The notes beneath the pieces are model-generated. The model was given only the letters and a program-made list of their open reading frames with translations, searched no databases and was not told the DNA's origin. A program made the translations under genes and the position numbers. From contig JBAZQY010000001.1 in the NCBI GenBank assembly GCA_041663185.1, forward strand, positions 117,298-181,297: DNA of 64,000 bases, read 5' to 3'. This stretch comes from Minisyncoccota bacterium. GTDB lineage: Bacteria; Patescibacteriota; Minisyncoccia; Phycocordibacterales; UBA9973. This document shows, one piece after another, positions 1,069 to 26,416 of this stretch. Each line of letters starts with the position of its first letter. The stretch's first letter is position 1.

Positions 1069-1920
1069 TTATTTAATATTAAATATATTCACTAAAGAAA
1101 AAAGATTTAAGTTGAATAAAAAAGTAATGAGAGCACTGATGGCCAAAAATGGACCAAAAGGGATCTCTGTTTTCATATTAATTTTACGCTTAGAGGCTCC
1201 CATCAATAACAAACTCACAATCGTGCCTATCCAAAACGATAAGATAACCGCGCAAAGACCAGCAATTAACCCCAACATCCAGCCAATACCGAGAATTAAC
1301 TTGCCGTCACCAAGCCCCATCAAACGCCCCTTAGAAAAAAACCAGAGAAGGACAAAAGGTAAAGAAAGAAGTGGCCCCGCTAATAAATTAGACAAAGTTG
1401 GTAAAGTGAAAAATGAACCTACTGGAGAGAAATTTATAAAAATGGACAAAAAGGATAGGACGATAAAAATAATGACTAATTTATCGGGAATAATTTTATG
1501 CCGAATATCGTAAACTGAAATGACAATCAGTAATGAGAAAATAAAAACAAAAAACACAACAAAAAAGATATAGGACCAATAAGACATATAAAGAATAGGT
1601 AGGAACTTATAAGCAATAAGCGCAAAAATCAAACCAGTCCCGAATTCGACAAGTGGATATTGATGAGAGATGTGGCTAGCACAACGACGACATTTGCCTG
1701 ATTGAATCAGAAAACTAAGAACGGGAATAAGCTCATACCATCTCAAATTGTTATTACAAGTCATACAAATAGACCTTCCTCTGGTAATCTTCCGCCCTGT
1801 ATTAAATCGAAAAATGACAACATTCAAAAAACTTCCAATAATAGTTCCTAATAAAAAAATGAAGACAAATATAAGTAAACTCATGTTTTTATTATAACAT
1901 CCACCCCAACAAAAAACCAC
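1069..1920 (-). CDS. pilD: Prepilin peptidase (A24 family, PilD-like)
   Basis: Polytopic membrane protein with a CxxC...CxxC region (CMTCNNNL...CRRCASHIS) typical of prepilin peptidases. It is adjacent to the pilin genes. Confidence 0.75.
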   Translation of the reverse strand: MVFCWGGCYNKNMSLLIFVFIFLLGTIIGSFLNVVIFRFNTGRKITRGRSICMTCNNNLRWYELIPVLSFLIQSGKCRRCASHISHQYPLVEFGTGLIFALIAYKFLPILYMSYWSYIFFVVFFVFIFSLLIVISVYDIRHKIIPDKLVIIFIVLSFLSIFINFSPVGSFFTLPTLSNLLAGPLLSLPFVLLWFFSKGRLMGLGDGKLILGIGWMLGLIAGLCAVILSFWIGTIVSLLLMGASKRKINMKTEIPFGPFLAISALITFLFNLNLFSLVNIFNIK

Positions 1921-1930
1921 CTAATCCTAG
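1901..1930. terminator. Intrinsic terminator hairpin downstream of the pilin-1 gene
   Basis: aaaaaaccacc-taatcctag-ggtggtttttt: a GC stem flanked by A/T tracts, usable in both directions. Confidence 0.55.
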
Positions 1931-1988
1931 GTGGTTTTTTAACTACAAAATACTCTTGCTCATTTACATAACCCCTGTAAAATTTTTA

Positions 1989-2498
1989 CTAGTCACAATC
2001 ATACTCAGATGCACTTATTGGAACACTAGTGATGATTGCCTTACCTGTACTGTCAACACAAAACATTTTAGGGATTGCTGAAGTACTATCAGATAATGGT
2101 GCTTCAACAGCATAGGCTGTGGTTGTACCACCAACAGCATGACATGTTACTTTATTATAAGTGCCTGCGGTTATATTCGAAGTAACAGGAGCACCTGCAC
2201 CACCATCAACCCCTGAGGCATCAGCTATTGACTTGAGTAATCCAGGACCAGTGGCTCCCCCTAATCCTTTATTAACAACTGTGGCTGTACATAACCCTGA
2301 ATATATATTAGTCGGACTTTGTGAATAATAATATAATTCAGATTGTTTTTTTATTTGATCCATTTGACCTTTTACAGCTCCATCCTTTCCTTTATTACGA
2401 GCATCTCCTAATGAACTTAAAACGATAGCTGCTAAAATACCAATGATTGCGATAACGACCAACAATTCGATTAACGTAAAACCTTTATTTTTTTGCAT
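1989..2498 (-). CDS. Type IV major pilin, paralogue 1
   Basis: The true start is at MQKNKG|FTLIELLVVIAIIGILA, a canonical prepilin. The C-terminus has two Cys (FCVDSTG...YDCD). The listed ORF 1989..2819 is an upstream extension into the neighbouring gene. Confidence 0.8.
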   Translation of the reverse strand: MQKNKGFTLIELLVVIAIIGILAAIVLSSLGDARNKGKDGAVKGQMDQIKKQSELYYYSQSPTNIYSGLCTATVVNKGLGGATGPGLLKSIADASGVDGGAGAPVTSNITAGTYNKVTCHAVGGTTTAYAVEAPLSDSTSAIPKMFCVDSTGKAIITSVPISASEYDCD

Positions 2499-2560
2499 AA
2501 TATTTTCCGCTTTATGCGGGTCCGCACTTGGCGGAAATTTTAATAATTTTTTAATAAAAA
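2499..2560 (-). promoter_or_regulatory. Conserved pilin 5'UTR, copy 1 (duplicated with 3175..3235)
   Basis: Nearly identical to the region upstream of pilin 2 (cataatattttccgctttatgcgggtccgcac(t/a)tggcggaaatttt). It contains two small hairpins, ccgc-ttta-tgcgg and ccgc-ac(t/a)tg-gcgg. Confidence 0.5.
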
Positions 2561-2656
2561 CGACCTTAGCGAATAATATTTGGAAATTTGGAAATTGATT
2601 CTTATCTCTCTCCATCAAAATTATAACATATAACAAAATATAATCTAACAAGTTAT

Positions 2657-2694
2657 AAACAGAAAAACCACCCAATGGGTGGTTTTTCTGTTTA
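2657..2694. terminator. Intrinsic terminator downstream of the pilin-2 gene
   Basis: aaacagaaaaaccaccca-at-tgggtggtttttctgttt is an 18-bp perfect inverted repeat followed by a T-run. Confidence 0.6.
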
Positions 2695-2727
2695 TAAAAA
2701 GCAATTTTATAAATTTTTTTAAATAAA

Positions 2728-3174
2728 TTAGGCGTTATCACAAACAACATCAGTGGTTGCAGTAATTTCCGTTCCGGGAGCAACAGTAGAAGTCCCAGCA
2801 AATCCAGTACTATCAACACAGAAATTACCTCCTACTGGCAATGTAATAGCCCATCCCCAAGCTGTTGGAGCAGTAAGTGCAGCTGTATTCTGCGCACAAG
2901 TCGATACAGTTCCACCACCATTAGTTGCAGCTGTAACTAAAGTACCTAAACCTCCATCAGCAGTACTAGTGCAAAGACCATCAAGATAAGTTCCTGCAGT
3001 AGTCATACCAAGTTCAGCTTGAACTCTTGCAGAACTAACAGTAGATTGAACAGCTGCTGCCTTACCCTTATTTCTTGCAGTATTCAAACTTGCCAAAACG
3101 ACTGATGCCAAAATACCAATGATTGCGATAACGACCAACAATTCAATTAACGTAAAACCTTTATTTTTTTGCAT
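2728..3174 (-). CDS. Type IV major pilin, paralogue 2
   Basis: MQKNKG|FTLIELLVVIAIIGILAS... The first ~30 residues are identical to paralogue 1, the C-terminal region is divergent, and the FCVDSTG motif and C-terminal Cys are conserved. Confidence 0.8.
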   Translation of the reverse strand: MQKNKGFTLIELLVVIAIIGILASVVLASLNTARNKGKAAAVQSTVSSARVQAELGMTTAGTYLDGLCTSTADGGLGTLVTAATNGGGTVSTCAQNTAALTAPTAWGWAITLPVGGNFCVDSTGFAGTSTVAPGTEITATTDVVCDNA

Positions 3175-3235
3175 AATATTTTCCGCTTTATGCGGGTCCG
3201 CACATGGCGGAAATTTTATTAATAATTTTTTAATA
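3175..3235 (-). promoter_or_regulatory. Conserved pilin 5'UTR, copy 2
   Basis: Duplicate of 2499..2560. A TATAAT-like -10 (gatataatg on the minus strand) lies about 80 nt upstream of the start codon. Confidence 0.45.
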
Positions 3236-3355
3236 AGAAACACGACCTTATTTTTAATAATACCATTATATCATAAAACTAACTTAAAAATACAATGCGA
3301 TGCGACCTGTGGATAAGTTTGAATCAGTAGCAAGTAGTAAGGAGGATTTAGAGAT

Positions 3356-4564
3356 TTATACTCCACCGGCGATATTGTAAATCGGCATTAAGATTGATGA
3401 TAATAAGATACCAACTCCAAGCCCCAAAATAACAATCATAACTGGTTCAATTAATCCGACAAGAGTATCGACGGCTTCGTTAACTTCCCGAGCATAAAAA
3501 CGCCCGAGAGTTTTTAGAATATTCCCCAGGGACCCCGTCTCCTCCCCCACTCTTATCATCCCTGGCATAATTGGAGGAACTTCTTTGTGTTTAGAAAAAG
3601 CATCCGACAAAGAACTACCGCCTTTGACGGCTTCAGAAACATCTTTTAATATTCCTTCAAAAACCCGATTGCCAACCACCGCACTCGTCAACTCAATCGA
3701 TCGAACAATCGGGATACCCGATGAAAGCATAGTGTCCATATTGTCCGAAATTCTTGAAAGATAAAGTTTGGTGTAAATACTTTTGAAAACTGGGGTGTTA
3801 ATTTTTAATCGGTCAAAATATAATCGTCCAGCTGGAGATTTGGAATAGTGAATAATATAAACAACAAAGATAACTACTGCAATTAAAATGAAAACTCCGT
3901 AACGGACAAAAAGGTCACTCAACGACATAATAAGTCGAGTGAAAAATGGTATTTCAGCACTTGATTCTCGAATAATAAGCGCTAGTTTTGGAATAATAAA
4001 GACAAACATCATACACATCACGAGGATGAAAACACCGACAACAAAGGCTGGGTAGATCAGAGCATTTTTAGTTTTCGAAGTAAGTTGATATTGACGATCG
4101 AGATAATCGGCCAAATAAGAAAATGTTTGGGTAAGTTTACCCGTCTCTTCTCCAGCCCGAATCATATTGACATAAAAATCAGAGAAAACTACTTTGTGCT
4201 TCGCTAAAGCTCCGGAAATCGAAACTCCTGATCGAATATCTTCTGCAACTTCATTCAAAACTGCCACCAAAGCTTGATTTTCACTATTCTCAGCGAGCAG
4301 AGTGAAAGCTTTCAGGGCTGAAACTTGTGATTCAAAGAGCGTCGACATTTGTCGTGACATGATGACGATGTCTTTCATTTTTATTTTTGATTGCCCAAAG
4401 AAGGAAATATTAAACATCCCCTTTTTGGCTTTTTCTTCATCAATCGATGAGATGAAAAATCCGCGACGCTGAAGAGCAACAATCGCCAAGTCTTTCGAAC
4501 TTGCATCAATTGTCCCAACTTTATTCTCACCAGTACTGGTGATGGCTTTGTAATTGAATAACAT
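3356..4564 (-). CDS. pilC: Type IV pilus inner-membrane platform protein (PilC/GspF family)
   Basis: 402 aa with a duplicated T2SS-F-like architecture and 3 TM segments. It is adjacent to the pilT/pilB ATPases. Confidence 0.8.
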   Translation of the reverse strand: MLFNYKAITSTGENKVGTIDASSKDLAIVALQRRGFFISSIDEEKAKKGMFNISFFGQSKIKMKDIVIMSRQMSTLFESQVSALKAFTLLAENSENQALVAVLNEVAEDIRSGVSISGALAKHKVVFSDFYVNMIRAGEETGKLTQTFSYLADYLDRQYQLTSKTKNALIYPAFVVGVFILVMCMMFVFIIPKLALIIRESSAEIPFFTRLIMSLSDLFVRYGVFILIAVVIFVVYIIHYSKSPAGRLYFDRLKINTPVFKSIYTKLYLSRISDNMDTMLSSGIPIVRSIELTSAVVGNRVFEGILKDVSEAVKGGSSLSDAFSKHKEVPPIMPGMIRVGEETGSLGNILKTLGRFYAREVNEAVDTLVGLIEPVMIVILGLGVGILLSSILMPIYNIAGGV

Positions 4565-4566
4565 AA

Positions 4567-5649
4567 TTAAAACATTTGCTCTAATGATTTAGGATTAATA
4601 GAAAATTCATAAGCACTCTCGAGACTTATTTCTCCCCTCTGCACAAGATCAATCAGACATCGGTTCATATCAACCATCCCTTCATGGGACGAAGTTTCAA
4701 TGACGACATCGATCTCATGGGTTCTTTTTTCACGAATTAAATTGGCAATCGCTTTGTTATTGATCAAAAGTTCATAAGCGGGAATACGCCCACCGGCAAT
4801 CCGCGGAATTAAACGTTGCGAGAATATTCCAAGCAAACTTGAAGCGAGCTGTAAACGAATCTGGCCTTGTTGTTCGGCGGGGAATGAGTCGATAATACGA
4901 TCAATAGTTTGTGAAGCATTGTTGGTATGCAGAGTTGAAAGGACCAAGTGCCCCGTCTCAGCAGCTGTCACCGCAGCGGCGATGGTTGATGGATCACGCA
5001 TTTCTCCAATTAAAATAACATTGGCATCTTCACGGAAAGTTGACTTCAGAGCTTTCAAAAAATCATCCGTATCAATACCAATTTCACGTTGATTGATGAT
5101 TGATTTGTCGGGCTGATAGATGAATTCAATAGGATCTTCGATCGTCATAATGTGTGCTGCGGTTTGTGTATTGATCATATTAATCATCGTAGAGAGGGTT
5201 GTTGATTTACCTTGTCCGACTGGCCCAACAACAAGAAAGAATCCTTGTTTTTTCATAGTGAAATCTTTAAGGATCATCGGTAAATTTAATTCTTCAAATG
5301 ATTTAGCTTTAGGAATTAGCCGGATAGCGATGCAGACGAGCCCACGCTGAAAGAAAGCATTGCCTCGGAGTTGAACTTGACCATCTTTCAAATTACTCGA
5401 GAAATCAACATCCTTGTTTTCGATAAATTTCTTGACTCTTTCGCTGCCAATCAATTCCTCTAAAAGACCAAGCACATCATCTTCAGTCATAACTTTATGG
5501 TTAACCAAAGAGATAAGTTGGCCATTTACTCGGATGTATGGTTTGCGCCCGATACCAAGATGCAAATCTGAGCCATCTTCATTGATCAGGTTTTCAATTA
5601 ATTCATTGAGTAATTTTTTATATTCCATATTAGTTTTTGTGTGCGTCAC
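4567..5649 (-). CDS. pilT: Twitching-motility retraction ATPase PilT
   Basis: Walker A GPVGQGKST. The PilT-type motifs IEDPIE and ...GGRIPAYELLINN... are present. Confidence 0.8.
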   Translation of the reverse strand: MTHTKTNMEYKKLLNELIENLINEDGSDLHLGIGRKPYIRVNGQLISLVNHKVMTEDDVLGLLEELIGSERVKKFIENKDVDFSSNLKDGQVQLRGNAFFQRGLVCIAIRLIPKAKSFEELNLPMILKDFTMKKQGFFLVVGPVGQGKSTTLSTMINMINTQTAAHIMTIEDPIEFIYQPDKSIINQREIGIDTDDFLKALKSTFREDANVILIGEMRDPSTIAAAVTAAETGHLVLSTLHTNNASQTIDRIIDSFPAEQQGQIRLQLASSLLGIFSQRLIPRIAGGRIPAYELLINNKAIANLIREKRTHEIDVVIETSSHEGMVDMNRCLIDLVQRGEISLESAYEFSINPKSLEQMF

Positions 5650-6025
5650 TTATTATTTTAACAACTTTCTCGACTACTTCACTCGGCGTACTCGAAGCTT
5701 TGACAATATAGCCGGAGGCACCCATCGCTTCGGCGCGAGTAATATCTGTTTGTTGTCCACGATTAGAAAGAAAGACAATAATGGAATTCGGAGCAATTTT
5801 TTCTTTTCTAATTTTCTCAAGTAATTCAAACCCATCCATAACGGGCATCATAATATCTAAAATAATGAGATCCGGAGAAAGTCCTTGCTGAAGTTTCTCG
5901 AGAGCTAACTCCGGGCCTAAAGCAGTCGAAACATTAAAATTTGATTTACTAAATTTCAATGCATACATATCAAGAAGAAAGCTATCATCGTCGACAATCA
6001 GAATCTTTTTAAGTTCTTTATCCAT
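5630..6025 (-). CDS. Standalone response-regulator receiver domain (CheY/PilH-like)
   Basis: KILIVDDD...DIMMPVMDGFELL...K receiver signature, with no output domain. It is embedded in the pilus operon. Confidence 0.75.
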   Translation of the reverse strand: MDKELKKILIVDDDSFLLDMYALKFSKSNFNVSTALGPELALEKLQQGLSPDLIILDIMMPVMDGFELLEKIRKEKIAPNSIIVFLSNRGQQTDITRAEAMGASGYIVKASSTPSEVVEKVVKIISDAHKN

Positions 6026-6056
6026 ACATTTATATTATAATATAATTGTCAATATT

Positions 6057-7793
6057 TTAAAAGTTATAAACTTCTTGAAGTGGTATATCTCCTCGAATAC
6101 TTTTGACGATTGCATCTTCACGAATTGTCAGCATTCCACGTGAGCGAGCGAGCTTATAGATATCTTGCTCAACTGGATGTTTGAGGATTATCGCTTGCAT
6201 CTCCTTATCAATTTTAAACATTTCAAATAGTGATATACGGCCTTTTAGTCCGGAGGCGCATTCGGCCGACGGCACCGCTTCATAAATAGTGTTGCCGATA
6301 TTTAATTTCGATTTAAATTCTTCTGGCAAATCAGCAAATTGTTTATCAAACATTAATTTGGTCGCTTCATCAATCGGAATTTCGTGTTTAGAATTTGGAT
6401 GAATTCTGCGAGCTAGACGTTGAGCCATACAGAGAATCAAAGTTGGAGCAATTAGATATGGGTCTATTCCCATATCAATCAAACGTGGAATTGCCCCGAC
6501 AGAATTATTGGTGTGAAGTGTTGAAAGAACCAAGTGCCCGGTCAGGGCTGCTTGAATAGCAAGCTCGGCAGTTTCTTTATCACGAATTTCTCCGACTAAT
6601 ATAATATTGGGGTCTTGACGTAGAATTGACCTGAGTCCTGAAGCAAAAGTGTATCCAATCTCGGGCATAATCTGAGATTGATTAACTCCATCAATTTTAT
6701 ATTCAACTGGATCTTCTAGGGAAACAATATTCTTATCTTCCTTATCGAGTTCATTCAACATTGAGTAGAGAGTAGTTGTTTTACCACTTCCAGTTGGACC
6801 AGTAATAAGAAGTAATCCATATGGGCGAGACAATGAATCTCGAATAAGGACTAAATTCTCTTTTGACAATCCCAGGTCGTCGAGTTTCTGAATCCCTCTT
6901 TGAGAATCCAAAATACGCATCACAATCTTTTCTCCATAATAAGCCGGCATAGTCGAGACACGGAAATCAATTTTTCGGCCTTCAATTTTGGCTGAGAAGC
7001 CACCATCTTGTGGTTTACGTTTTTCATCGAGTCGTAATCGCGCCAAAATTTTAATACGCGCAACGACGCCATTATAGACAGAAAGTGGTAAAGTCAAAGA
7101 AGTATGTAAAATACCATCAACACGAAAACGCACTTTGACTCTATCCCCTGTATTTTCTATATGGATATCCGAAGCTAAACCTTCGGTGGCATTACGGAGA
7201 ATAACGGCGACAATCTTGACTATCGGCGCTTCTTCAACTATTTTCTCATCACCTGCTTTCTGAGTATCTGGTGATTTAATATTTGTTTCAATAATAACTC
7301 CACTGTCATTATAATCTGCAAACTCAGAATCAAGCTCACTGAGAGCTTGGTCAACTTCGGTACCACTTGTCCCTTCATACATTTCTATTAATTTATTGTA
7401 GACAGAAGTTGCAATCAAAAATAATTTAAATGGTTTATTTAATTTGGAGGTAATGAAAGTCAGCGCATCTATGGCTTGAATATTCTCTGGATCAACAATC
7501 CCAACTTCTAGAAAATTATCTGTTAAATTAATTGGAATAAAATGATAGATTTTAGCTGCATCAACTGGAATTAATCTTAGGATGGTCGGATCAACACTTC
7601 TCGGGTCAACTTTTTTAATTGGCACACCAAAAATATCTCCTTTGACTTCAAGAATTTTTTCTTCATCTAAATCGAAAACAACAAGTGCCTGGTCAATACT
7701 GCCCTCATATTTTTCATTAGCAATTTTGACGATTTCAGGTATTTGGTCTTCTTTTATAATTTCACGTTTTACAAGTTCTTCTAAAAGTATCAT
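6057..7793 (-). CDS. pilB: Type IV pilus assembly ATPase PilB (GspE family)
   Basis: N-terminal GSPII_E_N-like domain. Walker A LLITGPTGSGKTTTLYS and the T2SS-E secretion-ATPase core are present. Confidence 0.85.
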   Translation of the reverse strand: MILLEELVKREIIKEDQIPEIVKIANEKYEGSIDQALVVFDLDEEKILEVKGDIFGVPIKKVDPRSVDPTILRLIPVDAAKIYHFIPINLTDNFLEVGIVDPENIQAIDALTFITSKLNKPFKLFLIATSVYNKLIEMYEGTSGTEVDQALSELDSEFADYNDSGVIIETNIKSPDTQKAGDEKIVEEAPIVKIVAVILRNATEGLASDIHIENTGDRVKVRFRVDGILHTSLTLPLSVYNGVVARIKILARLRLDEKRKPQDGGFSAKIEGRKIDFRVSTMPAYYGEKIVMRILDSQRGIQKLDDLGLSKENLVLIRDSLSRPYGLLLITGPTGSGKTTTLYSMLNELDKEDKNIVSLEDPVEYKIDGVNQSQIMPEIGYTFASGLRSILRQDPNIILVGEIRDKETAELAIQAALTGHLVLSTLHTNNSVGAIPRLIDMGIDPYLIAPTLILCMAQRLARRIHPNSKHEIPIDEATKLMFDKQFADLPEEFKSKLNIGNTIYEAVPSAECASGLKGRISLFEMFKIDKEMQAIILKHPVEQDIYKLARSRGMLTIREDAIVKSIRGDIPLQEVYNF

Positions 7794-7796
7794 GAA

Positions 7797-8441
7797 TTAT
7801 TTAGTCGTAAAAGAAACTATTTCTCCACAAAGCTCAGCATTATTAACTTTGGCGCAGGCTTTAAAGAAATAAGTTGTCCTAGGATTTAGTCCTAAAACAT
7901 TTTTAATAAATGTCCCAACAAGCGATTGTTCTACTTTAGTTGTTACGAGACCCAAATTCTCTGTCGTCCCGTATTTAAAATAAGTATCGGTCACCCCATT
8001 TGTAATATTCATTGTTCCATTTAAAACAGCAGTTTTATCAGTAATCTGAGTCGCTGATTCAGTAATAATACTAGAACCTTGAGGTATACTATTACCATTA
8101 CTATCGACTGGAGCAAAAGGATTCGGACGGCCAGGAACAACTGGCTCTATTTTGACAGTATTGTCTATAAGTAAATTAAAAGATTTATTTGAAAATAAAG
8201 TTGTATCAATACTGATAGTTTTCAAAGCAACTAAAGTTGAAAGAAAAGAAATATCGGAAGTAATATCACTTCCAAGTGGTGAAGTCGCAGATTCCCCTTC
8301 TGTCGAAGATGCCAACGAACTACCAAAAGCAACCGGAATTAGACTTTCTGATTTTAAATCTCGTGAAGAATATAAATAAAAACCACCAATAAGTAGAAAG
8401 AGTGTTGAGACGATTAAAAATTTGTTGTACTTTGTTTTCAT
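7797..8441 (-). CDS. Pilus-associated hypothetical protein (N-terminal TM, PilP-like Pro-rich motif, C-terminal FN3-like domain)
   Basis: N-terminal TM helix, then PGRPNPFAP. The C-terminus has an ...LNPRTTYFFKACAKVN... fibronectin-III-like signature. It lies between pilO and pilB. Confidence 0.4.
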   Translation of the reverse strand: MKTKYNKFLIVSTLFLLIGGFYLYSSRDLKSESLIPVAFGSSLASSTEGESATSPLGSDITSDISFLSTLVALKTISIDTTLFSNKSFNLLIDNTVKIEPVVPGRPNPFAPVDSNGNSIPQGSSIITESATQITDKTAVLNGTMNITNGVTDTYFKYGTTENLGLVTTKVEQSLVGTFIKNVLGLNPRTTYFFKACAKVNNAELCGEIVSFTTK

Positions 8442-8442
8442 A

Positions 8443-9054
8443 TTATTTAAGCCAATAGGTATTGACTTCTAATTTATAACTATAGATATTTGGATTTGTT
8501 GTATCGGTTGGGTTAGCACTTGGTACTGGAACAGTGAAAGAAACTGACTTAATATCGACTAAACGAAGATTATGTTCCAAATCATTCAAAAAAACCAGGA
8601 AGGAGTCGTATTTGCCCTCAATAACAAAATTCATAGTAAAGACTCCATATGGAAGATAATCGGATGGGTCTTCTTCGGCGGCGACGACCATTTCTTCACT
8701 AGCTGCTGAACTCTCACTCTTCTTCTCTGTATTCTTAGTATCGAATGAAATATTTTTTATTGGCAAACCATGTAAATTAGCAATTTTTTCAATTTCGAGA
8801 ATTAATTCAATATTATTAATAGTACTAGGCAAGAAATGACTTAAGCGATCACGATCTTCTTTTTTGATATTTTTATATATTTCAACCAGTGAATCGCGAG
8901 TCTGTTGTAATTCAGTAGAATTACTGAGCGCTGTATTATAAGTCGCCACATCAGTTCTCAACACCTTTACATCACTATAAATCGGATTAACCGCCACGAA
9001 AAACAGAGCTACGGCCACAACAATAAATGTAATTGAAAGAATTAATCTCATCAT
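8443..9054 (-). CDS. pilO: PilO-like pilus biogenesis protein
   Basis: Single N-terminal TM plus a coiled-coil region. It occupies the expected position after pilN. Confidence 0.5.
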   Translation of the reverse strand: MMRLILSITFIVVAVALFFVAVNPIYSDVKVLRTDVATYNTALSNSTELQQTRDSLVEIYKNIKKEDRDRLSHFLPSTINNIELILEIEKIANLHGLPIKNISFDTKNTEKKSESSAASEEMVVAAEEDPSDYLPYGVFTMNFVIEGKYDSFLVFLNDLEHNLRLVDIKSVSFTVPVPSANPTDTTNPNIYSYKLEVNTYWLK

Positions 9055-9058
9055 AAAA

Positions 9059-9718
9059 TTATGGAGTGTTATTTTCTAAACTAGGTGATAATGGCATCGA
9101 GACAGGATCGGGAATTACTGGATTTTGTATTTTTTCAATTAAACTATTTTTCTCATAAGAAAGCAGAGTTGGGTCGACACTGAATTCAACCTTGAAACTA
9201 ATTTTATTACTTTTATCTTTAACAATCTCAGAAAAAATTACATCTTTAAAAACTTGACCCTTTGGTGTATTAAAAGCATCGGCTTGCAGAGCAATTGATC
9301 GATAATCCCGAGCTAGCCCGTCAATCCGAACCACAAAACCTTTATCAGTAGTCATATGACTAAAACTTGTATATTGCACTGAGGGAATTGTAATTTCTCC
9401 GAGTCGGGTAAAAAGTGGAGTTAAAACAATATGATTATTTAAAATTTGCTTAGCGGTTTCTGTGCGTTTATTAAACAAACTTAATTCATCAACTGTTTCC
9501 TTTTCAAAAGTATCTCGGACCACAGCCAAAGATGATGAAAGTGATTCTTTGTGTTTAGTTAAATAATTTTTATAAACAAATAACCCAAGCGACCCGAGAG
9601 CAGAGACAACTAATAAGAAAATAGCAATAATCAATAAAAGACTTCTCGGTGCCTTATCTGACACAGCTGAGGTGATAGGCTTCTTGGGGATAAAAGATGT
9701 TTGAAATGAATTTTCCAT
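9059..9718 (-). CDS. pilN: PilN-like pilus biogenesis protein
   Basis: Bitopic protein with an N-terminal cytoplasmic tail and TM helix, immediately downstream of pilM. Confidence 0.5.
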   Translation of the reverse strand: MENSFQTSFIPKKPITSAVSDKAPRSLLLIIAIFLLVVSALGSLGLFVYKNYLTKHKESLSSSLAVVRDTFEKETVDELSLFNKRTETAKQILNNHIVLTPLFTRLGEITIPSVQYTSFSHMTTDKGFVVRIDGLARDYRSIALQADAFNTPKGQVFKDVIFSEIVKDKSNKISFKVEFSVDPTLLSYEKNSLIEKIQNPVIPDPVSMPLSPSLENNTP

Positions 9719-9727
9719 GTTATATAT

Positions 9728-10864
9728 TTATGACAATTGACGAAGGGCCAATCCTACCGCAACCGTAAACTCAGGGCCACTCGTTTCTAAAATTGGTTCT
9801 AGGAAGGCAGGAGCTTCTGTTTTTGCAAAAGGATTACCGTAAACAACTTCTGTATGAAAATTTTCCTTTGCCCGATCTAGTAAACCTTTTAATAAAGAAC
9901 CTCCTCCAACTAAAACAACTTTACTTATATTCTTATTATACTTCTTCTCATAAGCAAGCACAACACTATTCACATCAGAAAAAATATAGTCGATTGATAA
10001 ACGAGCAATATTCTCGACTCGTGCATCAATTTTGGCATCCAGCCCAACGGCGCGTTTTAATTTCTCAGCTTCTTCAAAAGTAACACTCAATGATTGAGAG
10101 ATGTTTCGACTGATATCTTGTGAACCTCGATTAATAACGTGGAAAACTCGGACAACTCCAGCTTCAACGATTGAAGCTTTGGTTTTCGAAGCTCCAAAAT
10201 CAAGGAGTAGGACTGGAGCCAAATCGCGATTAAATGATGAACGAATATTGCTGAAAATTTCCATTTCAAAAGAATCGGACTGTAATCCGGTCTTTTTTAA
10301 AATATCTTGATACTTTGATAATGTATCATTATGAATTGCAACGACCAAAATTTCTATCTTGGTTTGAACATTATTCTGATTAGTTTCATCGCTTTCAACT
10401 GATTCGACTTCTTGAGGAATTAAGAACCAATCGAGAGTAACTTCAGAAATTGGCACAGGAATATATTTACGCGCCTCAATCGGTACAATTTTTGATAATT
10501 GACTTTCTTCAACTTTACTAGGAAGCGAGATAGTAAAAATTAAACTCGAAAGTGATGGAATCGAGATGACTGCTTGCTTGGTGGTAACATTGGCTTCTTT
10601 GATGACATCAAGTAAAGCTTTAGAGATATCTTCGGTTGGTAAATTTGTGACTGTCCCTACATCAGTTTTCCCATAAGGACCCAAGGAAAGAATGCCATAC
10701 GTCTCAAGCACCGCTTTACCGTTTTTCTTTTTTAGTTGCACAACTTTTATGGCTGAGGATCCAATGTCTATACCAAGTATTTCTTTGTTGGATTTATCAG
10801 AATTAAAAACATTCGATAAACTAGCAAACCCTTCAGAAATTATTTTTTTTAGTGAATTATCCAT
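9728..10864 (-). CDS. pilM: PilM, actin-like ATPase of the type IV pilus
   Basis: ILGIDIGSSAIKVVQL... and an FtsA/actin fold signature. It is the first gene of the operon. Confidence 0.8.
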   Translation of the reverse strand: MDNSLKKIISEGFASLSNVFNSDKSNKEILGIDIGSSAIKVVQLKKKNGKAVLETYGILSLGPYGKTDVGTVTNLPTEDISKALLDVIKEANVTTKQAVISIPSLSSLIFTISLPSKVEESQLSKIVPIEARKYIPVPISEVTLDWFLIPQEVESVESDETNQNNVQTKIEILVVAIHNDTLSKYQDILKKTGLQSDSFEMEIFSNIRSSFNRDLAPVLLLDFGASKTKASIVEAGVVRVFHVINRGSQDISRNISQSLSVTFEEAEKLKRAVGLDAKIDARVENIARLSIDYIFSDVNSVVLAYEKKYNKNISKVVLVGGGSLLKGLLDRAKENFHTEVVYGNPFAKTEAPAFLEPILETSGPEFTVAVGLALRQLS

Positions 10865-10918
10865 ATTAAATCCTTTTAATCAGTATTCATTATAACATAT
10901 ATATTGTAAAATAAAGAA

Positions 10919-11590
10919 ATGAAATCATTCCCATACCTCAAATCAATTAAAAAATTTCTATTGGATATTTTATTTCCAGCAAAATGTACAGGTTGCCGGA
11001 CAAAAAATGAAATTCTGTGTGATAATTGCATATTAAAAATACGCCCAGCCGAGAGAGAAACAGAAAGAGATATCATCGCTGTCTTTGATTATAGAGACCC
11101 AGTGATCAAAAAGGCTATCTGGGAATTAAAATACTATCATAAGCGTTATTTGGGAGAAAAAATGGGGCAATTATTGTATGAATCTTTAATTGAAGAGATT
11201 GCCGATTTAAAAACTGAAGTCGCGGGCCGATCTATCTATGTTGTCCCTGTACCTATTTCAAAAAAGAAAACACATGCTCGAGGATATAATCAAGCCCTTA
11301 TCATTGCCCGGGGATTTTGTCATTTCGGAGAACCTGGAGTTTTAGAATTAAAAAATAATCTGGTTATTAAAAAAATCGAAACCACCCCGCAAGCAAAAAT
11401 TACAAATAGGAAAAGACGCTTGCAGAATGTTCGAGGAGTTTTTGAAACGATAAATCCTGATTTAATTCGTGGCCGAACTATCATCATTATTGATGATGTC
11501 ACAACCACCGGAGGAACAATATCTGAGATTATAAAAATTCTTAAAAAGGCTGGAGCCAAAAAAGTTATCGGCTTCACTGTGGCGCATTAG
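10919..11590 (+). CDS. comFC: ComF family phosphoribosyltransferase (competence protein ComFC-like)
   Basis: N-terminal Cys4 region (CTGCRTKNEILCDNC) and a PRTase motif IIIIDDVTTTGGT. It is divergent from the pilus operon. Confidence 0.75.
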   Translation: MKSFPYLKSIKKFLLDILFPAKCTGCRTKNEILCDNCILKIRPAERETERDIIAVFDYRDPVIKKAIWELKYYHKRYLGEKMGQLLYESLIEEIADLKTEVAGRSIYVVPVPISKKKTHARGYNQALIIARGFCHFGEPGVLELKNNLVIKKIETTPQAKITNRKRRLQNVRGVFETINPDLIRGRTIIIIDDVTTTGGTISEIIKILKKAGAKKVIGFTVAH

Positions 11591-11597
11591 GGTCAGG

Positions 11598-11629
11598 GCA
11601 TGAAAATTTTTAATTAAAAATTTTCATGC
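11598..11629. promoter_or_regulatory. 32-nt perfect AT-rich palindrome (candidate operator or terminator)
   Basis: gcatgaaaatttttaa|ttaaaaattttcatgc lies between the comFC stop and the ATP-grasp gene start. tattatac follows it. Confidence 0.4.
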
Positions 11630-11641
11630 TATTATACATAT

Positions 11642-12832
11642 ATGAAAAAAAATAAAAACTATTGTCCAGATTGCGGGGGAGCTCAAACTATTCATTTTGT
11701 CGCTTATGTCTCTGTGTTGCTAGGTGCATTATTCGAACCTTGGACAAATTGGATAGGTAAAGTTATTCCTGAATCATCTTTCGATTGGTTGGGACCAACT
11801 TTGACAAAAATTTTAACTTTTTTAAAACTCGGTAAAATAACTTATGAACCAAAAGAAGATGATAGTGGCCGAACTCGAGTTCTTTGGGAAGAAGCCATTA
11901 AAAGAGGTATCAAAATGTATGAGTTTCGTTTATTTGGAATTGGCCACGATATTTTTGTTTCAGAATACAAAGGACATAAAAGATTTTTTGATGTTTTACC
12001 CCGTCCAGATAAATACAATCCCAAGGGTTTGGAATGGATGGATGATAAAGGTAAGATGAAAAAACATTTCAAAAAAGCAGGAATTAAAGTTGCAAATGGT
12101 AGAGTTGTCCACTCTGTCCGAAAGGCTTTAAAAGTTTTTAACTCTCTAGAAAAACCAGTCATTACTAAGCCAAATTTGGGTTCAAGGAGTCGCCATACTA
12201 CAACTCACATAAGTGATAAAAAAGAATTTATTATTGCTTTCAAGAAAGCTCGCCAACTTTCCCCTTGGGTGATGATTGAAGAGGAACTTTCTGGGTATGT
12301 TTTCAGGGGGACATTAATTGGTGGGAAATTAATCGCCGTTCTGCGTCGTGAGCCAGCTTATGTGATCGGTGATGGAATTCATAATGTAAAAGAATTAATT
12401 GAAATTGAAAATAAAAATCCCCTACGCACTGGTCCAATTTTCCATCAATTAAAATTAGACAGTGAAGCAATCAAAGAATTAACTCACTTTGGTCACACGG
12501 AAAATACAATCCCTAAAAAAGATGAAATCATAACTCTCGGACAAAAGACCAGCCGATCTGTCGGCGGAGGAATTACTGACATGACCGATATCGTCCACCC
12601 CGATAATAAAATATTATTGGAAAAAGTCGCAAAAGTTCTCGATGACCCACTGATCGGTGTAGATTTTATCATGGATGATGTCGCTATCTCTTGGCGTGAC
12701 CAACCAAAATGTGGAGTTATCGAATGCAACAGCGCTCCGTTCATTGACCTACACAGCTTCCCTCTTGTCGGCCGTCCTCACAACGTCGCAAGCGCCCTTT
12801 GGGATATTGTTTACCCAGATTCAAAAACGTAA
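11642..12832 (+). CDS. ATP-grasp domain ligase (RimK / cyanophycin-synthetase-like) with an N-terminal Cys motif
   Basis: CPDCGG at the N-terminus. The central and C-terminal regions resemble an ATP-grasp fold (…GKLIAVLRREPAYVIGDG…, …VGGGITDMTDI…). Confidence 0.5.
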   Translation: MKKNKNYCPDCGGAQTIHFVAYVSVLLGALFEPWTNWIGKVIPESSFDWLGPTLTKILTFLKLGKITYEPKEDDSGRTRVLWEEAIKRGIKMYEFRLFGIGHDIFVSEYKGHKRFFDVLPRPDKYNPKGLEWMDDKGKMKKHFKKAGIKVANGRVVHSVRKALKVFNSLEKPVITKPNLGSRSRHTTTHISDKKEFIIAFKKARQLSPWVMIEEELSGYVFRGTLIGGKLIAVLRREPAYVIGDGIHNVKELIEIENKNPLRTGPIFHQLKLDSEAIKELTHFGHTENTIPKKDEIITLGQKTSRSVGGGITDMTDIVHPDNKILLEKVAKVLDDPLIGVDFIMDDVAISWRDQPKCGVIECNSAPFIDLHSFPLVGRPHNVASALWDIVYPDSKT

Positions 12833-15239: not shown

Positions 15240-15258
15240 TTTAAATTTTTATTAATTG

Positions 15259-15345
15259 CGGATGGGGTGAGATTCGAACTCACGGAACCGGTTAGGGTTC
15301 GGCGGTTTAGTAAACCGCTGCCTTAAGCCTCTCGGCCACCCATCC
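15259..15345 (-). tRNA. Class II tRNA (Ser-like, long variable arm) with an apparent anticodon ACU (non-canonical)
   Basis: Cloverleaf on the minus strand: acceptor GGATGGG/CCCATCC, T-arm GTGAG-TTCGAAT-CTCAC, a ~19-nt variable arm, and anticodon arm GCGGT-TTACTAA-ACCGC. Confidence 0.6.
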
Positions 15346-16444: not shown

Positions 16445-16531
16445 GGAGCCGTGTCAGAGTGGTCTAACGTACCTCTTTGCTAAAGAGGCAGGGTGTAAAA
16501 GCCCTCACAGGTTCGAATCCTGTCGGCTCCG
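16445..16531 (+). tRNA. tRNA-Ser (anticodon GCU)
   Basis: Acceptor GGAGCCG/CGGCTCC, anticodon arm CCTCT-TTGCTAA-AGAGG, a long variable arm, and T-loop TTCGAAT. Confidence 0.8.
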
Positions 16532-16557
16532 CAATTGTTTATGCTATAATACACTAC

Positions 16558-20990: not shown

Positions 20991-21653
20991 TTAAATTTCC
21001 TTATATATTTCAAGTTTTTGTTTTATTGATTTTATAACTTGATTAAGAAACTCCCACCGCTTAGGATCAACATCTTCTCCTGGTGCATTCTTTAATTCAT
21101 ATCCTAAAATTTTTGCCATGTATTCCGCAGCTTCGTTTACATTTATTATAAATTGTTTATTCGAAGGTAATTGCTTAACTTGTTCATTTGTTCCAACCTG
21201 TGATTTCCATATATCATCATTAAATAATTTCTGTTGTTCTTCATTAAGCAAATTGTCATAAAGATATTCCGGTAATACTTGATTCAGATATTCCATCATT
21301 TTTTTTATTTCAGGAATATCATAACCCCTTTTGGAATCTTCCGTCTTTCCTTTTATTAACCAAGATCCTCTGTTACCAAAAAATGGGTACCATTCTCCCC
21401 CAACCTTACCACTTGTTCCTCTACTACTTTGATAAAAAGGCACTTTTATACTATTTATATCTGCAATAACAGCTATTCTTGTGCCGGGTTGAACAATATA
21501 TCTCTTTCCTTCTGCGTTTTCATATAAAACTTTGTTTTTAAATAATTCATCTATCCTTTCCTTAAAAGGTAATCTCTTTTCTATTTGCGATAAATCGAGT
21601 TTCTTTTCTTTGTCAAAAAAATCGTCTTCAATTTTAGGTTGGTTAAAATTCAT
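20991..21653 (-). CDS. Hypothetical protein
   Basis: 220-aa ORF co-oriented with, and immediately downstream of, tRNA-Ile. No recognised motif. Confidence 0.4.
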   Translation of the reverse strand: MNFNQPKIEDDFFDKEKKLDLSQIEKRLPFKERIDELFKNKVLYENAEGKRYIVQPGTRIAVIADINSIKVPFYQSSRGTSGKVGGEWYPFFGNRGSWLIKGKTEDSKRGYDIPEIKKMMEYLNQVLPEYLYDNLLNEEQQKLFNDDIWKSQVGTNEQVKQLPSNKQFIINVNEAAEYMAKILGYELKNAPGEDVDPKRWEFLNQVIKSIKQKLEIYKEI

Positions 21654-23907: not shown

Positions 23908-24354
23908 ATGGCCGTATATATAGACAACAGAAAAGCTCACTTTAATTACAGCATCGAGGATACTTACGAGGCTGGTATTGAATTACTCGGGCATGAAGTC
24001 AAATCAATCAAGAGTGGAAGCGGGAATATTAACTCGGCTTTTTGTATCGTCCGTGGTGGTGAAGCGTATATCATAAATATGAAAATTCCTCCTTACCAAC
24101 CACACAATATGGATCTTGGATACGACCCTGAAAGGACCCGTCGCTTATTATTATCAAAAAAAGAAATAAAGAAGTTAGCGGATCAAGATGATAAAAAAGG
24201 ATTGACTCTCATCCCTATTTCATTATATAGTAAGGGTCCTTATATAAAAGTCTCTATCGCTGTGGCTCGCGGGAAAAAAGAATTCGACAAAAGAGAAACA
24301 ATCAAAAAACGCGAAACAGATAGAGAGATAAGGAGAACTTTGAAAACAGGGTAG
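23908..24354 (+). CDS. smpB: SsrA-binding protein SmpB
   Basis: 148 aa with a conserved SmpB core (…NRKAHFNY…GIELLGHEVKSIK…) and a basic C-terminal tail. It lies immediately upstream of tmRNA. Confidence 0.85.
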   Translation: MAVYIDNRKAHFNYSIEDTYEAGIELLGHEVKSIKSGSGNINSAFCIVRGGEAYIINMKIPPYQPHNMDLGYDPERTRRLLLSKKEIKKLADQDDKKGLTLIPISLYSKGPYIKVSIAVARGKKEFDKRETIKKRETDREIRRTLKTG

Positions 24355-24422
24355 GAAGTAGCAAGTAGTATGTAGTAAGGAATTAATTTCCCTTTCTACT
24401 TTCTACTTACTACCTACTACTT
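24355..24422. repeat. GTAG-heptad imperfect hairpin (REP-like repeat family member)
   Basis: Left arm gaaGTAGcaaGTAGtatGTAGtaagg and right arm cctttCTACtttCTACttaCTACctaCTACtt, built from 7-nt units GTAGNAA/TTNCTAC. Confidence 0.6.
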
Positions 24423-24428
24423 AATACT

Positions 24429-24819
24429 GGGGATGATCGGCTTCGACAAAATGAATCCTCTTATATATGCATGTAAAGTACCCAGGAATCTTTTAAAACT
24501 TCTTGGAAAAGACTAAGTGCAAACAAAGTCGCTTCAGTTCTTTCACCTTACTCTTTTGGGTTAGGTCAAAGAGCTCTTGCTTACGCCTAAACGGCTCCGG
24601 CAAGTGTTCATTCTTTTGACATCCGATATAAAGAGTGGGCATAATTTATCGGGTTACGATTTTACAAATGTCCGATGTAGAATTCGACAATTTAGGACTC
24701 GGTGTTTATCTTTCCTGTATGTCCTCTAGGATAAACATTTAAACCCAAGTGGACATAACAAACATGTAGAATTATCTAAGAGTTCCTTTTGCACGCGGGT
24801 TCGATTCCCGCCATCTCCA
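24429..24819 (+). ncRNA. ssrA: tmRNA (ssrA)
   Basis: 5' end GGGGATGATCGGCTTCGAC. The 3' T-arm GCGGGTTCGATTCCCGC plus acceptor CATCTCC pairs with the 5' end. An internal reading frame gca aac aaa ... gct ctt gct tac gcc taa encodes a tag ending ...RALAYA. Confidence 0.8.
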
Positions 24820-24865
24820 CAATTAAAAAACGTCCAGCAATGGGCGTTTTTTAATTGTGGAGATG
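24812..24865. terminator. 21-nt perfect inverted repeat incorporating the tmRNA 3' terminus
   Basis: catctccacaattaaaaaacg-tccagcaatggg-cgttttttaattgtggagatg. Confidence 0.55.
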
Positions 24866-25227
24866 AGAAAGCCAACTGCTTGGCTTTCGGCGGGAAGCGA
24901 AAGACTTTTCGTTATTTGCGAAGCAAATCGAAAAGTACCTGGCGATGTAATCGCCGATAAGTGTACTCACGGTCCCGCTATTTCTTGCGTGGAAATCAAA
25001 AGGTATACTGTCCTCGTAGAGGAAGATACTCAGACATCTCCACAACATTTTAAACCTTATTTTGTAAGGGTTATTTTACTTGACTTTTTTGTCAATCTAT
25101 GCTATCATTCTACTGGGTCAGTTCTTTGATATTTGGTTTTAAATTAAATTTGTTGGATTGTCTTTGCTCCCCTTTCTATGGAATAAAGACAATTCAATAA
25201 ATTTTTAAACACAAAAAACCAGAAAAA

Positions 25228-25725
25228 ATGAAAAAAATAATATTAACTTCAGAAACGGGATTAGAAATAATCAATGCCCTAAATAAAATTACTCAAAATC
25301 ATTATTTCACGATTGAGAAATGGTATTCAAATGAAAATCTTCCTTTATCTGATGATGATGTTAGTAATATTAAATGGGGGGAACAAAAAGATACTCTCAA
25401 AAATATCACCGTGAAAGCAGGATACACATCCGGAAAAGGTTACAATAGTGATTATGGTTGTATCGTTATGTCGCTATCACCCCTAGCTTTTGCGACACAT
25501 TTCGAAACAGGTTCTATTTTTTATATTTTTGATGATGAAATAGTTGTTGGAATATTAAATGGAAAAAATCAATTCCTATACAGGCGATATTCCATTGAAA
25601 AAGATAGCCCCGAAACTAAGAATCGCGAATACTGCAATCAGTCCGAAGCTGACAACTACAGGATGCATTTGGGTGAAAAGTGGGAAAATGACAACATGTT
25701 TGGAGTATCGGAAGAAGAGGATTAG
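25228..25725 (+). CDS. Hypothetical protein
   Basis: 165-aa ORF followed by a hairpin and T-tract at ~25726-25790. Confidence 0.4.
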   Translation: MKKIILTSETGLEIINALNKITQNHYFTIEKWYSNENLPLSDDDVSNIKWGEQKDTLKNITVKAGYTSGKGYNSDYGCIVMSLSPLAFATHFETGSIFYIFDDEIVVGILNGKNQFLYRRYSIEKDSPETKNREYCNQSEADNYRMHLGEKWENDNMFGVSEEED

Positions 25726-26116: not shown

Positions 26117-26416
26117 ATGCTACTCTTAAAGAAACTTAAAAAAATGGGAACACTGGAACCACTTAGTAGACGCACTCGCCTACTCTGGATGTATAATACT
26201 CTTATTCATCCACACCGTATCAAAATAATAATCGTATGTTTTGATTCTCGTGATAAAGCACTATATCCCTGTCATTTATCTCGTGACCAGGATGTTGAGA
26301 AAAAAATAAACAATATTTCAATCGAAACTCCAAATGTAATCATCATTGAGGTTATTGATTTGGATAAAGAACCGTTTGATGTATTCGATATGTTCGAGCT
26401 TGAAAATTTTTACTAG
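26117..26416 (+). CDS. Hypothetical protein
   Basis: 99-aa ORF followed by a bidirectional hairpin at ~26443-26480. Confidence 0.35.
   Translation: MLLLKKLKKMGTLEPLSRRTRLLWMYNTLIHPHRIKIIIVCFDSRDKALYPCHLSRDQDVEKKINNISIETPNVIIIEVIDLDKEPFDVFDMFELENFY

Follow-up and report, generated by a model that had tools for sequence, protein, structure and literature searches.

Structured elements with host-matched arms directly behind tRNA and tmRNA genes of Paceibacteria

Transfer RNA (tRNA) genes are classic integration hot spots, and duplicated 3′ ends of tRNA or transfer-messenger RNA (tmRNA) genes are found as attachment (att) sites attL and attR at integrated islands, the so-called 'traffic at the tmRNA gene'. 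Other known systems include tRNA-like modules, such as MALAT1 mascRNA, the tRNA-miRNA transcripts of gammaherpesviruses, the 3′ tRNA-like structures of plant viruses, and the external guide sequences of ribonuclease P (RNase P). GOLLD and ROOL are large structured RNAs of unknown function that are phage-borne and often lie beside tRNA genes, and the miniature inverted-repeat transposable elements (MITEs), Correia and REP elements are miniature inverted-repeat or palindromic sequences. In the present study, a 64,000-nucleotide stretch of a Minisyncoccota genome was analyzed (the window, taken at its full length), in which the tmRNA gene ssrA is followed by a block at positions 24855-25045. This block belongs to a widespread and so far uncatalogued family of structured elements that are located directly 3′ of tRNA and tmRNA genes in Paceibacteria, on the same strand as those genes.

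Like the tRNA-like modules, the element has an acceptor-like stem on a T-stem-like stem and a discriminator-like base, and it adjoins another RNA, so that enzymes of tRNA end processing could act on it. Unlike those modules, its stems are copied from or complementary to the 3′ end of the neighboring gene and vary with the host, its T-loop is replaced by a large junction, it has no CCA, and the G3.U70 identity pair is lost when the host is a tmRNA. As in island att duplications, a direct repeat of the host 3′ end is found downstream of an intact gene, with patchy occurrence in relatives; in contrast to them, the element has no integrase or cargo, a covarying interior, an inverted complement interrupted by a hairpin, and at least 24 isoacceptors as hosts. 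The association of a complex conserved fold with tRNA genes is shared with GOLLD and ROOL, but the element measures approximately 120-190 nt per unit, is chromosomal, has no Rfam match and carries host-matched arms. The element is also short and non-coding with 11-bp terminal inverted repeats and strong folding on both strands, similar to MITE, Correia and REP elements, except that it is not dispersed, its terminal repeats are derived from the host gene, and it forms a multi-helix junction instead of one hairpin. The order of T-arm, acceptor 3′ strand, hairpin and acceptor-5′-like strand resembles that of permuted tmRNA (RF04321, 31.3 bits, E = 2e-4). A permuted two-piece tmRNA was nevertheless rejected: the score lies below the gathering score of 47, the match covers only model positions 36-99 of 213, the upstream tmRNA is complete, no tag frame or pseudoknots follow, and the same layout is found behind tRNAs.

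No other family is known to us whose structured element is wrapped in both a copy and a complement of its neighbor's 3′ end, and no description of this family was found in the full-text literature searched, which did not extend to subscription journals. The family is apparently undescribed.

Host-matched arms and covarying helices of the family

The arms of the element are defined by the 3′ end of the host gene. In the window, the last 11 nucleotides of ssrA (X, 24812-24822, + strand) consist of the acceptor 3′ strand CATCTCC, the discriminator A and CAA, and form the 5′ foot of an extended hairpin. This 11-mer, CATCTCCACAA, has exactly three copies in the 64 kb: at 24812 (+), at 24855 as the complement TTGTGGAGATG, and at 25035 (+). 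The copy at 24855-24865 (X′, +) is the exact Watson-Crick complement of X, and its possible partners are X and the direct copy at 25035-25045 (X2, +), which repeats the tmRNA acceptor 3′ strand, the discriminator and CAA. Because the copy at 24855 is a complement and the copy at 25035 is direct, an 11-bp inverted repeat closes the block. The original prediction, which had been made from the letters of the window, correctly traced the repeat at 25035-25045 to the ssrA 3′ end but raised the concern that 11 nucleotides could recur by chance; three exact copies within 234 nt, in an arrangement that is kept across genomes, remove this concern.

Across the family, the order of the parts is the host terminator hairpin, X′, a hairpin termed P2, a complement of the host T-stem and T-loop, one or more modules closed by a helix termed P3, and sometimes P1, the helix of X′ with X2. 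Read in sequence, the host terminator is followed by the complement of the trailer and the acceptor 3′ strand, AGC-P2-GCGT, the T-stem 5′ strand and A(A/T)TCGAA. At the other end, the 3′ side of ...CGGT is occupied in every case by the T-stem 3′ strand of the upstream gene, and often by its acceptor 3′ strand as well.

A metagenome collection was scanned with a pattern taken from the body only (TGTAA-N4-7-GAWAAGYGTAHTCRCGGTCC), and more than 119 stretches matched, which is a lower bound; across all scans, more than 140 copies were found, again a lower bound. Among 123 listed instances, 83 had a tRNA or tmRNA gene on the same strand ending no more than approximately 400 nt upstream, 27 were too near a contig edge to tell, and 13 had no upstream gene within 600 nt. 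Among the matches listed, the hosts comprised at least 24 tRNA isoacceptors and tmRNA, including tRNAs for Gln, Glu, Tyr, Lys, Val, His, Pro, Leu, Ile, Trp, Asn and Gly, several for Arg and several for Ser.

The arms follow the host gene closely. In 44 copies, the 7-mer that comes after the T-stem strand of the element reproduced the host T-loop in reverse complement, with host TTCGATT answered by AATCGAA 32 times and host TTCGAAT by ATTCGAA 12 times, and no cross-cases were seen; a variant 7-mer, AAGCGAA, occurred 5 times, including in the window. At positions where the two differ, X′ matched the complement of the host acceptor 3′ strand and not the real 5′ strand of the host in 46 of 51 cases. 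Watson-Crick pairing of X′ was 91% with the host strand, compared to 52% with the element's own downstream copy. The T-stem copy in the element was identical to that of the host in 53 of 81 copies, and the acceptor copy that forms P1 was found in roughly a quarter of copies, the window among them. Where the tmRNA ends in CACTTCC and not CATCTCC (loci L014 and L021), the complement arm is correspondingly GGAAGTG.

The body between the repeats is under structural constraint and is not decaying. RNAalifold applied to 22 units from 13 hosts predicted P2, P3 and the further helices P5 and P6, with compensatory changes in 16 of 23 pairs. When helix P4 was added, 91.7% of cells in the 22 copies could pair, compared to 70.8% in column shuffles and at most 47% with slid partners, and double changes were seen in 20 of 29 pairs. 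A covariance model (R1) was built with the window among its seed sequences. This model detected 20 copies in CPR (candidate phyla radiation) loci fetched via SmpB, with independent relatives scoring 40-136 bits, no copy in the non-CPR loci L046-L080, and 123 copies, 118 of them distinct, in L081-L180. In the 118 distinct copies, 95.7% of cells pair versus 68.9% after shuffling, the covariation score is 0.565 versus 0.136, and compensatory changes are found in 28 of the 29 modelled pairs, including all 9 P2 pairs. Covariation was also seen at pairs on which the search pattern had placed no constraint: the middle pair of P6 was CG 75 times, UA 28 times, UG 3 times and CA 4 times, and the six P5 pairs were 94-99% Watson-Crick with 3-5 pair types each. 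The motifs CGAA, GUACUGA, GUA, GAUAAG, UACU and CGGU are unpaired and near-invariant.

Loci of relatives were fetched via SmpB, independently of the body pattern. The best relatives of the window SmpB were metagenome-assembled genomes (MAGs) of Paceibacteria and Nomurabacteria within the CPR, with up to 84% identity, and the gene order tRNA-Ile(UAU), SmpB, tmRNA is kept among relatives. The blocks in L001 and L002 are approximately 82% identical to that of the window over 115 nt. In many Paceibacteria loci, the plan 3′ of tmRNA is the tmRNA 3′ end, a terminator hairpin, TGTGGAGATG and AGC-hairpin-GCGT, followed by GCGGGAATCGAA(A/G), variable hairpins and often (C)GATTCCCGCCATCTCCACA, which is a 16-20-nt copy of the tmRNA 3′ end. 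In 13 tmRNA-linked copies the CTGC loop of P2 is invariant and the stems change, and some of these loci end with a second terminator and a second unit. The tRNA-Ile genes in L019, L021, L030 and L037 are followed by the same architecture with arms that fit tRNA-Ile, and L019 carries two identical units in tandem. No block was found behind the tmRNA in L004, L013, L022 and L025, for example, and about half of the fetched CPR tmRNA loci are without the element. The comparison of ssrA downstream regions suggested originally gave a mixed result, with a homologous block present in some relatives and absent in others.

Two further conserved module types were observed in the same setting. One, occupying the same slot, reads RCGGAG-hairpin-CGAG-NNGGGGTCG-AT-rich hairpin-TGACCGA(TT), with a GGAG/CGA internal loop that is kink-turn-like in look; it is located behind tmRNA in L009, L010, L015, L017, L021, L027 and L039 and behind tRNA-Ile in L004 and L037, and it has no Rfam match. 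The other consists of GAGAGGGRTCGGGAGAAC...GGTCTCCCGTGGAGGAAGG and then a hairpin, and was seen in L026 and L033 (behind tmRNA) and in L030 (behind tRNA-Ile), where it directly abuts the tRNA without a terminator or acceptor-complement arm.

Orthologous copies, which are associated with the same host tRNA in different metagenomes, are more alike than two copies within one genome, and two copies on one contig differ in their P2 and P4 subtypes. Recent spread within genomes was rejected on these grounds, and the agreement of orthologous copies together with the difference between same-genome copies points to mostly vertical descent. The same P2 sequences do occur behind different tRNAs, which argues for some past copying between loci. 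Whole-unit tandem duplications, perfect or near-perfect and with a period of approximately 170-190 nt including the terminator, were observed in L019 (1-600, - strand), L124 and L113, and could come from unequal crossing-over or assembly collapse.

At least one of the instances with no tRNA upstream arose by secondary rearrangement: in L186, tRNA-Glu(UUC) is separated from its element by a 10.8-kb island (locus approximately 1430-12335), whose genes include those for a large serine recombinase (10759-12300) and a PIN-domain protein. Copies of the 9-bp repeat TAGGGTCAC border the island on both sides, which places the crossover at the T-stem/acceptor boundary, and a second repeat, CGATTCCAATTTGAAC(T)ACA, is located on either side of the displaced 3′ end plus element. 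In L171, L183, L180 and L087, the expected upstream tRNA is replaced by a short non-tRNA sequence sharing CAGGGTAA(G/T)GAA, with the terminator and element as in intact loci such as L118 and L089; these sequences may mark the junctions of other insertions, or may belong to an RNA gene that escaped detection.

Anatomy of the window element

The host gene, a one-piece tmRNA (24429-24822, +), was identified by ARAGORN, which ends it at 24820, and by Rfam RF00023, which ends it at 24822 (119.9 bits compared to a gathering score of 47). Its tag reading frame is ANKVASVLSPYSFGLGQRALAYA* by ARAGORN, and the SmpB gene (23908-24354) lies immediately 5′ of it. The original observation that the tmRNA 3′ end is embedded in a perfect 21-nt inverted repeat holds (24812-24832 / 24845-24865, no mismatch), and the repeat extends to arms of 25 nt (24812-24836 / 24841-24865) that are 96% complementary with one T.G and a 4-nt loop. 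Between X and X′ is the terminator-type hairpin TTAAAAAACGTCCA-GCAA-TGGGCGTTTTTTAA (24823-24854, +), whose center is an A6CG...CGT6 stem-loop and whose stem reaches 25 bp when X and X′ are included. Read from the sequence, its lone T.G wobble can pair on the + strand only.

The GC content of 24855-25045 is 46%, compared to 35.8% for the whole window, as had been anticipated by eye. The minimum-energy fold of the + strand is -74.9 kcal/mol (z = -6.1), with none of 200 shuffles as stable, and that of the - strand is -72.3 kcal/mol (z = -7.2). In the predicted minimum-energy fold the whole block is a five-way junction, and it contains every one of the small hairpins that had been picked out beforehand. 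P1, an 11-bp helix of 24855-24865 with 25035-25045, closes the entire element; in X′, the G3.U70 pair of the tmRNA acceptor stem becomes A3-U70.

P2 (24867-24888, +) is a 9-bp hairpin with a CTGC loop that is independent of the host and has a covarying stem in the family. The next segment, GGCGGGAAGCGAA (24889-24901, +), is complementary at 12 of 13 positions to the T-stem 3′ strand and T-loop of the tmRNA (TTCGATTCCCGCC), and within it GCGGGA (24890-24895, +) is the predicted 5′ strand of P3. P4 (24904-24936, +), in the fold and as a family helix, consists of ACTTTTCG / CGAAAAGT around the small hairpin ATTTGC-GAA-GCAAAT. P5 (24941-24955, +), GGCGAT-GTA-ATCGCC, which is likewise found both in the fold and in the family pairing, has a 6-bp stem and an invariant GTA loop. 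The best-conserved stretch of the family (24956-24973, +) is the J5/6 linker GATAA followed by P6 (GTG-TACT-CAC) and GGT. TCCCGC (24973-24978, +), a copy of the tmRNA T-stem 3′ strand, closes module 1 as the 3′ half of P3.

The segment at 24979-25034 (+) is a second-module remnant that contains a small hairpin, AAAAGGTATACTG, the P5-like TCCTC-GTA-GAGGA (25011-25023) and AGATA; 31 nt of it are 93.5% identical to a module in L009 (3041-3071) that was also matched by the covariance model. The window belongs to a minority with a perfect acceptor copy, and the remnant separates this acceptor copy from the T-stem copy. The defining features of the proposed family were all found in the window: an 11/11 X′, P2 with its CTGC loop, the 12/13 T-loop/T-stem complement, and P3 to P6. 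The covariance model matched 24859-24986 with 96.6 bits, a score that is not independent as the window is a seed member. No second copy was found in the 64-kb window with blastn or with the covariance model.

Several identities were considered for the block and rejected. No Rfam family matched 24855-25045 at the gathering score, either in the window or in 15 relatives, and none at E <= 0.05; at permissive thresholds there was only hairpin-type noise besides the sub-threshold permuted-tmRNA match, so that the search against Rfam that had been proposed returned no family for the block. ARAGORN and the Rfam tRNA model were both empty for 24823-25100 on either strand, which is evidence against a tRNA or a tRNA pseudogene; the tRNA-like parts in the predicted fold are only the acceptor-like and T-stem-like helices. 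A second or permuted tmRNA or tRNA on the - strand (TTCGCTTCCCGCC-hairpin-TCATCTCCACAA) was also rejected, as ARAGORN and Rfam were empty and the strand tests favor the + strand. A group I intron in the T-loop does not fit, because the tmRNA is uninterrupted, there is no group I match, and the body of approximately 80-110 nt is smaller than group I introns are. Group I introns have been described in tRNA genes of Patescibacteria and are a different phenomenon (PMC13011429).

Two overlapping open reading frames (ORFs) are present in the block, as originally listed, and the suspicion that the + ORF (24857-25129) is spurious was borne out: it is broken in 13 of 15 homologous copies by a stop after 5-45 codons, and the block was rejected as coding. 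For annotation, such blocks create spurious ORFs and could pass for att scars. A dispersed repeat of the MITE or REP type is contradicted by the lack of a second copy in the window and by the position of 83 of the 123 instances directly behind a tRNA or tmRNA gene, with most others at contig edges. Searches of IMG/VR viral contigs with two patterns, and of phage and plasmid collections, gave no match, and a prophage, plasmid or viral origin was rejected. A primer-binding site of a tRNA-primed retroelement was also rejected since the pairing is with the genomic trailer ACAA and not with CCA, and no reverse transcriptase is near. Bridge-RNA, TIGR and H/ACA-like bipartite guides share only a resemblance with the element, which has no associated protein gene.

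Readings of the element as RNA or DNA

We consider it an even proposition that the element is a putative structured RNA on the same strand as its host, a pseudo-tRNA shell around a conserved core that would arise from run-on transcription of the host gene. In this model the layout is that of a pseudo-tRNA, with an acceptor-like stem predicted on a T-stem-like stem, P2 in place of the D and anticodon arms, and a conserved junction of approximately 80 nt in place of the T-loop. Transcription running past the tmRNA terminator would yield the element RNA on the tmRNA strand, and X′ would then toggle between two exclusive partners, the tmRNA 3′ end in the 25-bp hairpin, or X2. Pairing of X′ with X2 would close the pseudo-tRNA and free the tmRNA acceptor stem. 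Because the acceptor/T-stem stack, the discriminator and the CAA trailer echo host processing signals, RNase P and RNase Z could cut here and excise the module as a stable RNA, whose conserved core would do the element's job. The RNase P RNAs of CPR bacteria are divergent, and about two-thirds are without the CCA-binding UGG motif (PMC8172020); this is compatible with the CCA-less ends described here and is not evidence of processing.

Strand comparisons favor this reading. The host strand gave the better fold of the module in 89 of 96 cases (p = 2e-15), and among paired cells G-U outnumbered A-C by 65 to 38 (p = 0.01). The hairpins formed between the host and X′ gave a count of 48 G-U pairs when read on the + strand, compared to 25 on the - strand. 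In addition, sequence inspection showed a second A-tract/hairpin/T-tract 3′ of several of the complete units.

A number of observations weigh against RNA. G-U accounts for approximately 2% of paired cells, compared to 6.6% in host acceptor stems, and the mismatches between X′ and the host have no wobble bias (9 G-U and 10 A-C), so that templated copying of DNA or a two-strand structure fits as well as selection on RNA. When whole tRNA-plus-element transcripts were folded, the predicted minimum-energy structure paired the acceptor 3′ strand of the host with X′ in 41 of 48 cases, in place of the 5′ strand that is its normal partner, and P1 formed in none of the 48. The acceptor copy is bimodal, being perfect in 22 of 81 copies and otherwise essentially unrelated; because it is perfect in just these 22, P1 is not universal. 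A strong A-tract/T-tract terminator stands between the tmRNA and the element, and run-on transcription may therefore be rare, while inspection of the window for promoters found none for the element itself. Excision by RNase P and RNase Z is a step that we purely infer, and the alignment of 118 copies was fitted to its model, which inflates pairing somewhat. In view of the rarity of G-U pairs, the strictly Watson-Crick X′, the terminator ahead of the element and the dominance of host-X′ folds, our estimate for RNA goes no further than about one half.

The same observations make structure at the level of DNA a serious rival, given the scarcity of G-U pairs and the strict Watson-Crick character of the complement arm; we regard it as unlikely overall, though well worth attention. 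Folded single-stranded or cruciform DNA would rebuild the T-stem/acceptor duplex of the host with P2 as a side branch, and could act as a recombination or replication substrate, or be a selfish palindrome kept perfect by intrastrand template switching. The 91% Watson-Crick match of X′ to the host, the replacement of host G.U pairs by Watson-Crick pairs and the lack of wobble bias are all consistent with such a structure, as is the finding that the two strands of the window element fold about equally well. The palindromes of host 3′ end and X′ have a mean length of 64 nt and a mean energy of -36.8 kcal/mol, and if they formed as RNA, the host tRNA would be unfolded. tRNA 3′ ends are also real integration sites in these genomes, and in L186, where an island separates tRNA-Glu from its element, the crossover position is the very point at which P2 interrupts the complement arm. 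Folded DNA is harder to reconcile with the fold-energy asymmetry (89/96) and the 65:38 ratio of G-U to A-C, which favor host-strand RNA, and with a four-way junction whose unpaired nucleotides, in junction and loops, are highly conserved, as is typical of RNA tertiary folds. The window element has no gene for a recombinase, a transposase or replication nearby, nothing alike was found in viral contigs, phages or plasmids, and the greater likeness of orthologous copies indicates mostly vertical descent.

It is rather improbable, in our judgment, that the element is a 3′ device serving its host in tmRNA or tRNA maturation or in the insulation of transcription. As such a device, the complement arm would lengthen the terminator duplex into an RNase III-type site for processing or quality control of read-through precursors, and the GC-rich body would be a fail-safe block before the next promoter. 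The much closer match of X′ to the host strand than to the element's own copy (91% versus 52%) would be expected under this explanation, which also draws on the dominance of the long hairpin in predicted read-through transcript folds, the G-U bias of that hairpin toward the + strand, and the sigma-70-like promoter that is found directly 3′ of the element in the window and, by eye, in several relatives. Yet the element is dispensable, as three tRNA genes of the window and approximately half of the fetched CPR tmRNA loci are without it; a simple insulator or duplex needs no conserved four-way junction with invariant loops, and a host gene product whose T-loop and acceptor strand were paired in this way would be misfolded. 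The scar or attachment remnant of a small integrative element, as the original prediction had it, would amount here to decayed attL/attR sites and debris of an element once present in the ssrA 3′ end. It could account for the direct repeat of the ssrA 3′ end (11 nt and exact in the window, 16-20 nt in relatives) and for the presence of the block in only some relatives, and islands do use tRNA 3′ ends in these genomes. Pfam searches of the flanking genes, however, returned housekeeping neighbors only, with no integrase and no cargo, and the interior is conserved, 28 of 29 pairs showing compensatory changes. Site-specific integration does not yield an inverted complement arm into which P2 is inserted, and the genuine island in L186 has unrelated ends. 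The body occurs behind at least 24 isoacceptors with host-specific arms and not at one target gene, and therefore no single attP could produce these copies. A scar is thus largely refuted by covariation and host range, and we give it very little chance. The alternative that had been offered alongside it, a structured small RNA beside tmRNA, is upheld in substance, in that the block is a conserved, covarying multi-helix element.

More broadly, it is tempting, at slightly below even confidence, to see in Paceibacteria an unrecognized class of elements tethered to tRNA and tmRNA genes, modular pseudo-tRNAs whose arms are a copy and a complement of the neighbor's 3′ end and which contain at least three conserved types of RNA core. 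Such a class may be a new RNA partner in tRNA maturation or surveillance, or a selfish element that copies the 3′ end of its target upon colonizing it. If it is a functional RNA, a widespread class of structured RNA would be added to a phylum with a large share of bacterial diversity, for which, to our knowledge, almost no non-coding RNAs have been characterized experimentally. The design binds the element, both physically and in its evolution, to tRNA and tmRNA genes, and questions of tRNA 3′-end handling, read-through control and tRNA mimicry in reduced genomes thereby become open to direct tests. Were the element DNA-level or selfish instead, it would represent a new way of colonizing tRNA genes.

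Neighborhood and minor observations

The neighboring genes, as determined with Pfam, encode FtsH, a phosphoglucomutase, IF3, L20, an RNase J-like beta-CASP protein, a CYTH protein and SmpB. Neither an integrase, transposase, reverse transcriptase, recombinase or replication gene nor island cargo was found among the flanking genes near the window element. The downstream ORFs 25228-25725 and 26117-26416 had no Pfam match. Outside the element, a sigma-70-like promoter, TTGACT-17-TATCAT with TG (25080-25108, +), marks a boundary and would serve ORF 25228-25725; TTGAC-type motifs were also seen by eye 3′ of the element in several relatives. Because this promoter-like site comes after the block, the block is not the leader of the next gene. 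A riboswitch in the 5′ untranslated region (UTR) of the downstream gene was rejected for the same position of the promoter-like site and because the downstream genes vary between relatives. Both the hairpin and the element are missing from the other three tRNA genes of the window, and a general trait of tRNA terminators in this genome was rejected accordingly.

An inverted repeat with 25-nt arms that are 84% complementary is located at 25146-25204, between the promoter-like site and the ORF start at 25228. It draws noise matches from microRNA models in Rfam and may be a hairpin in the 5′ UTR of the 165-aa gene. On the other side of the tmRNA, in the smpB-tmRNA gap at 24350-24428, the purine-rich GTAGGAAGTAGCAAGTAGTATGTAGTAAGG is found opposite the pyrimidine-rich partner CCCTTTCTACTTTCTACTTACTACCTACTAC, which resembles a long imperfect hairpin 5′ of the tmRNA, and short direct repeats CTACTTA(C/A)TAC are also present.

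Farther upstream in the window, a 220-aa ORF without a Pfam match (20991-21653, -) begins 4 nt 3′ of tRNA-Ile(UAU), and no terminator separates the two. ARAGORN assigned the anticodon ACT to a tRNA-Ser at 15258-15345 (-), with the anticodon loop TTACTAA, and a tRNA-Ser(GCT) is close by at 16445-16532; A34 is unusual in bacteria outside tRNA-Arg(ACG). Finally, in the Paceibacterota MAG locus L004, two divergent S-adenosylmethionine (SAM) riboswitch aptamers were observed approximately 110 nt apart, at 5815-5922 (-) and 6035-6130 (+), with scores of 47.1 and 44.0 bits compared to a gathering score of 44.4.

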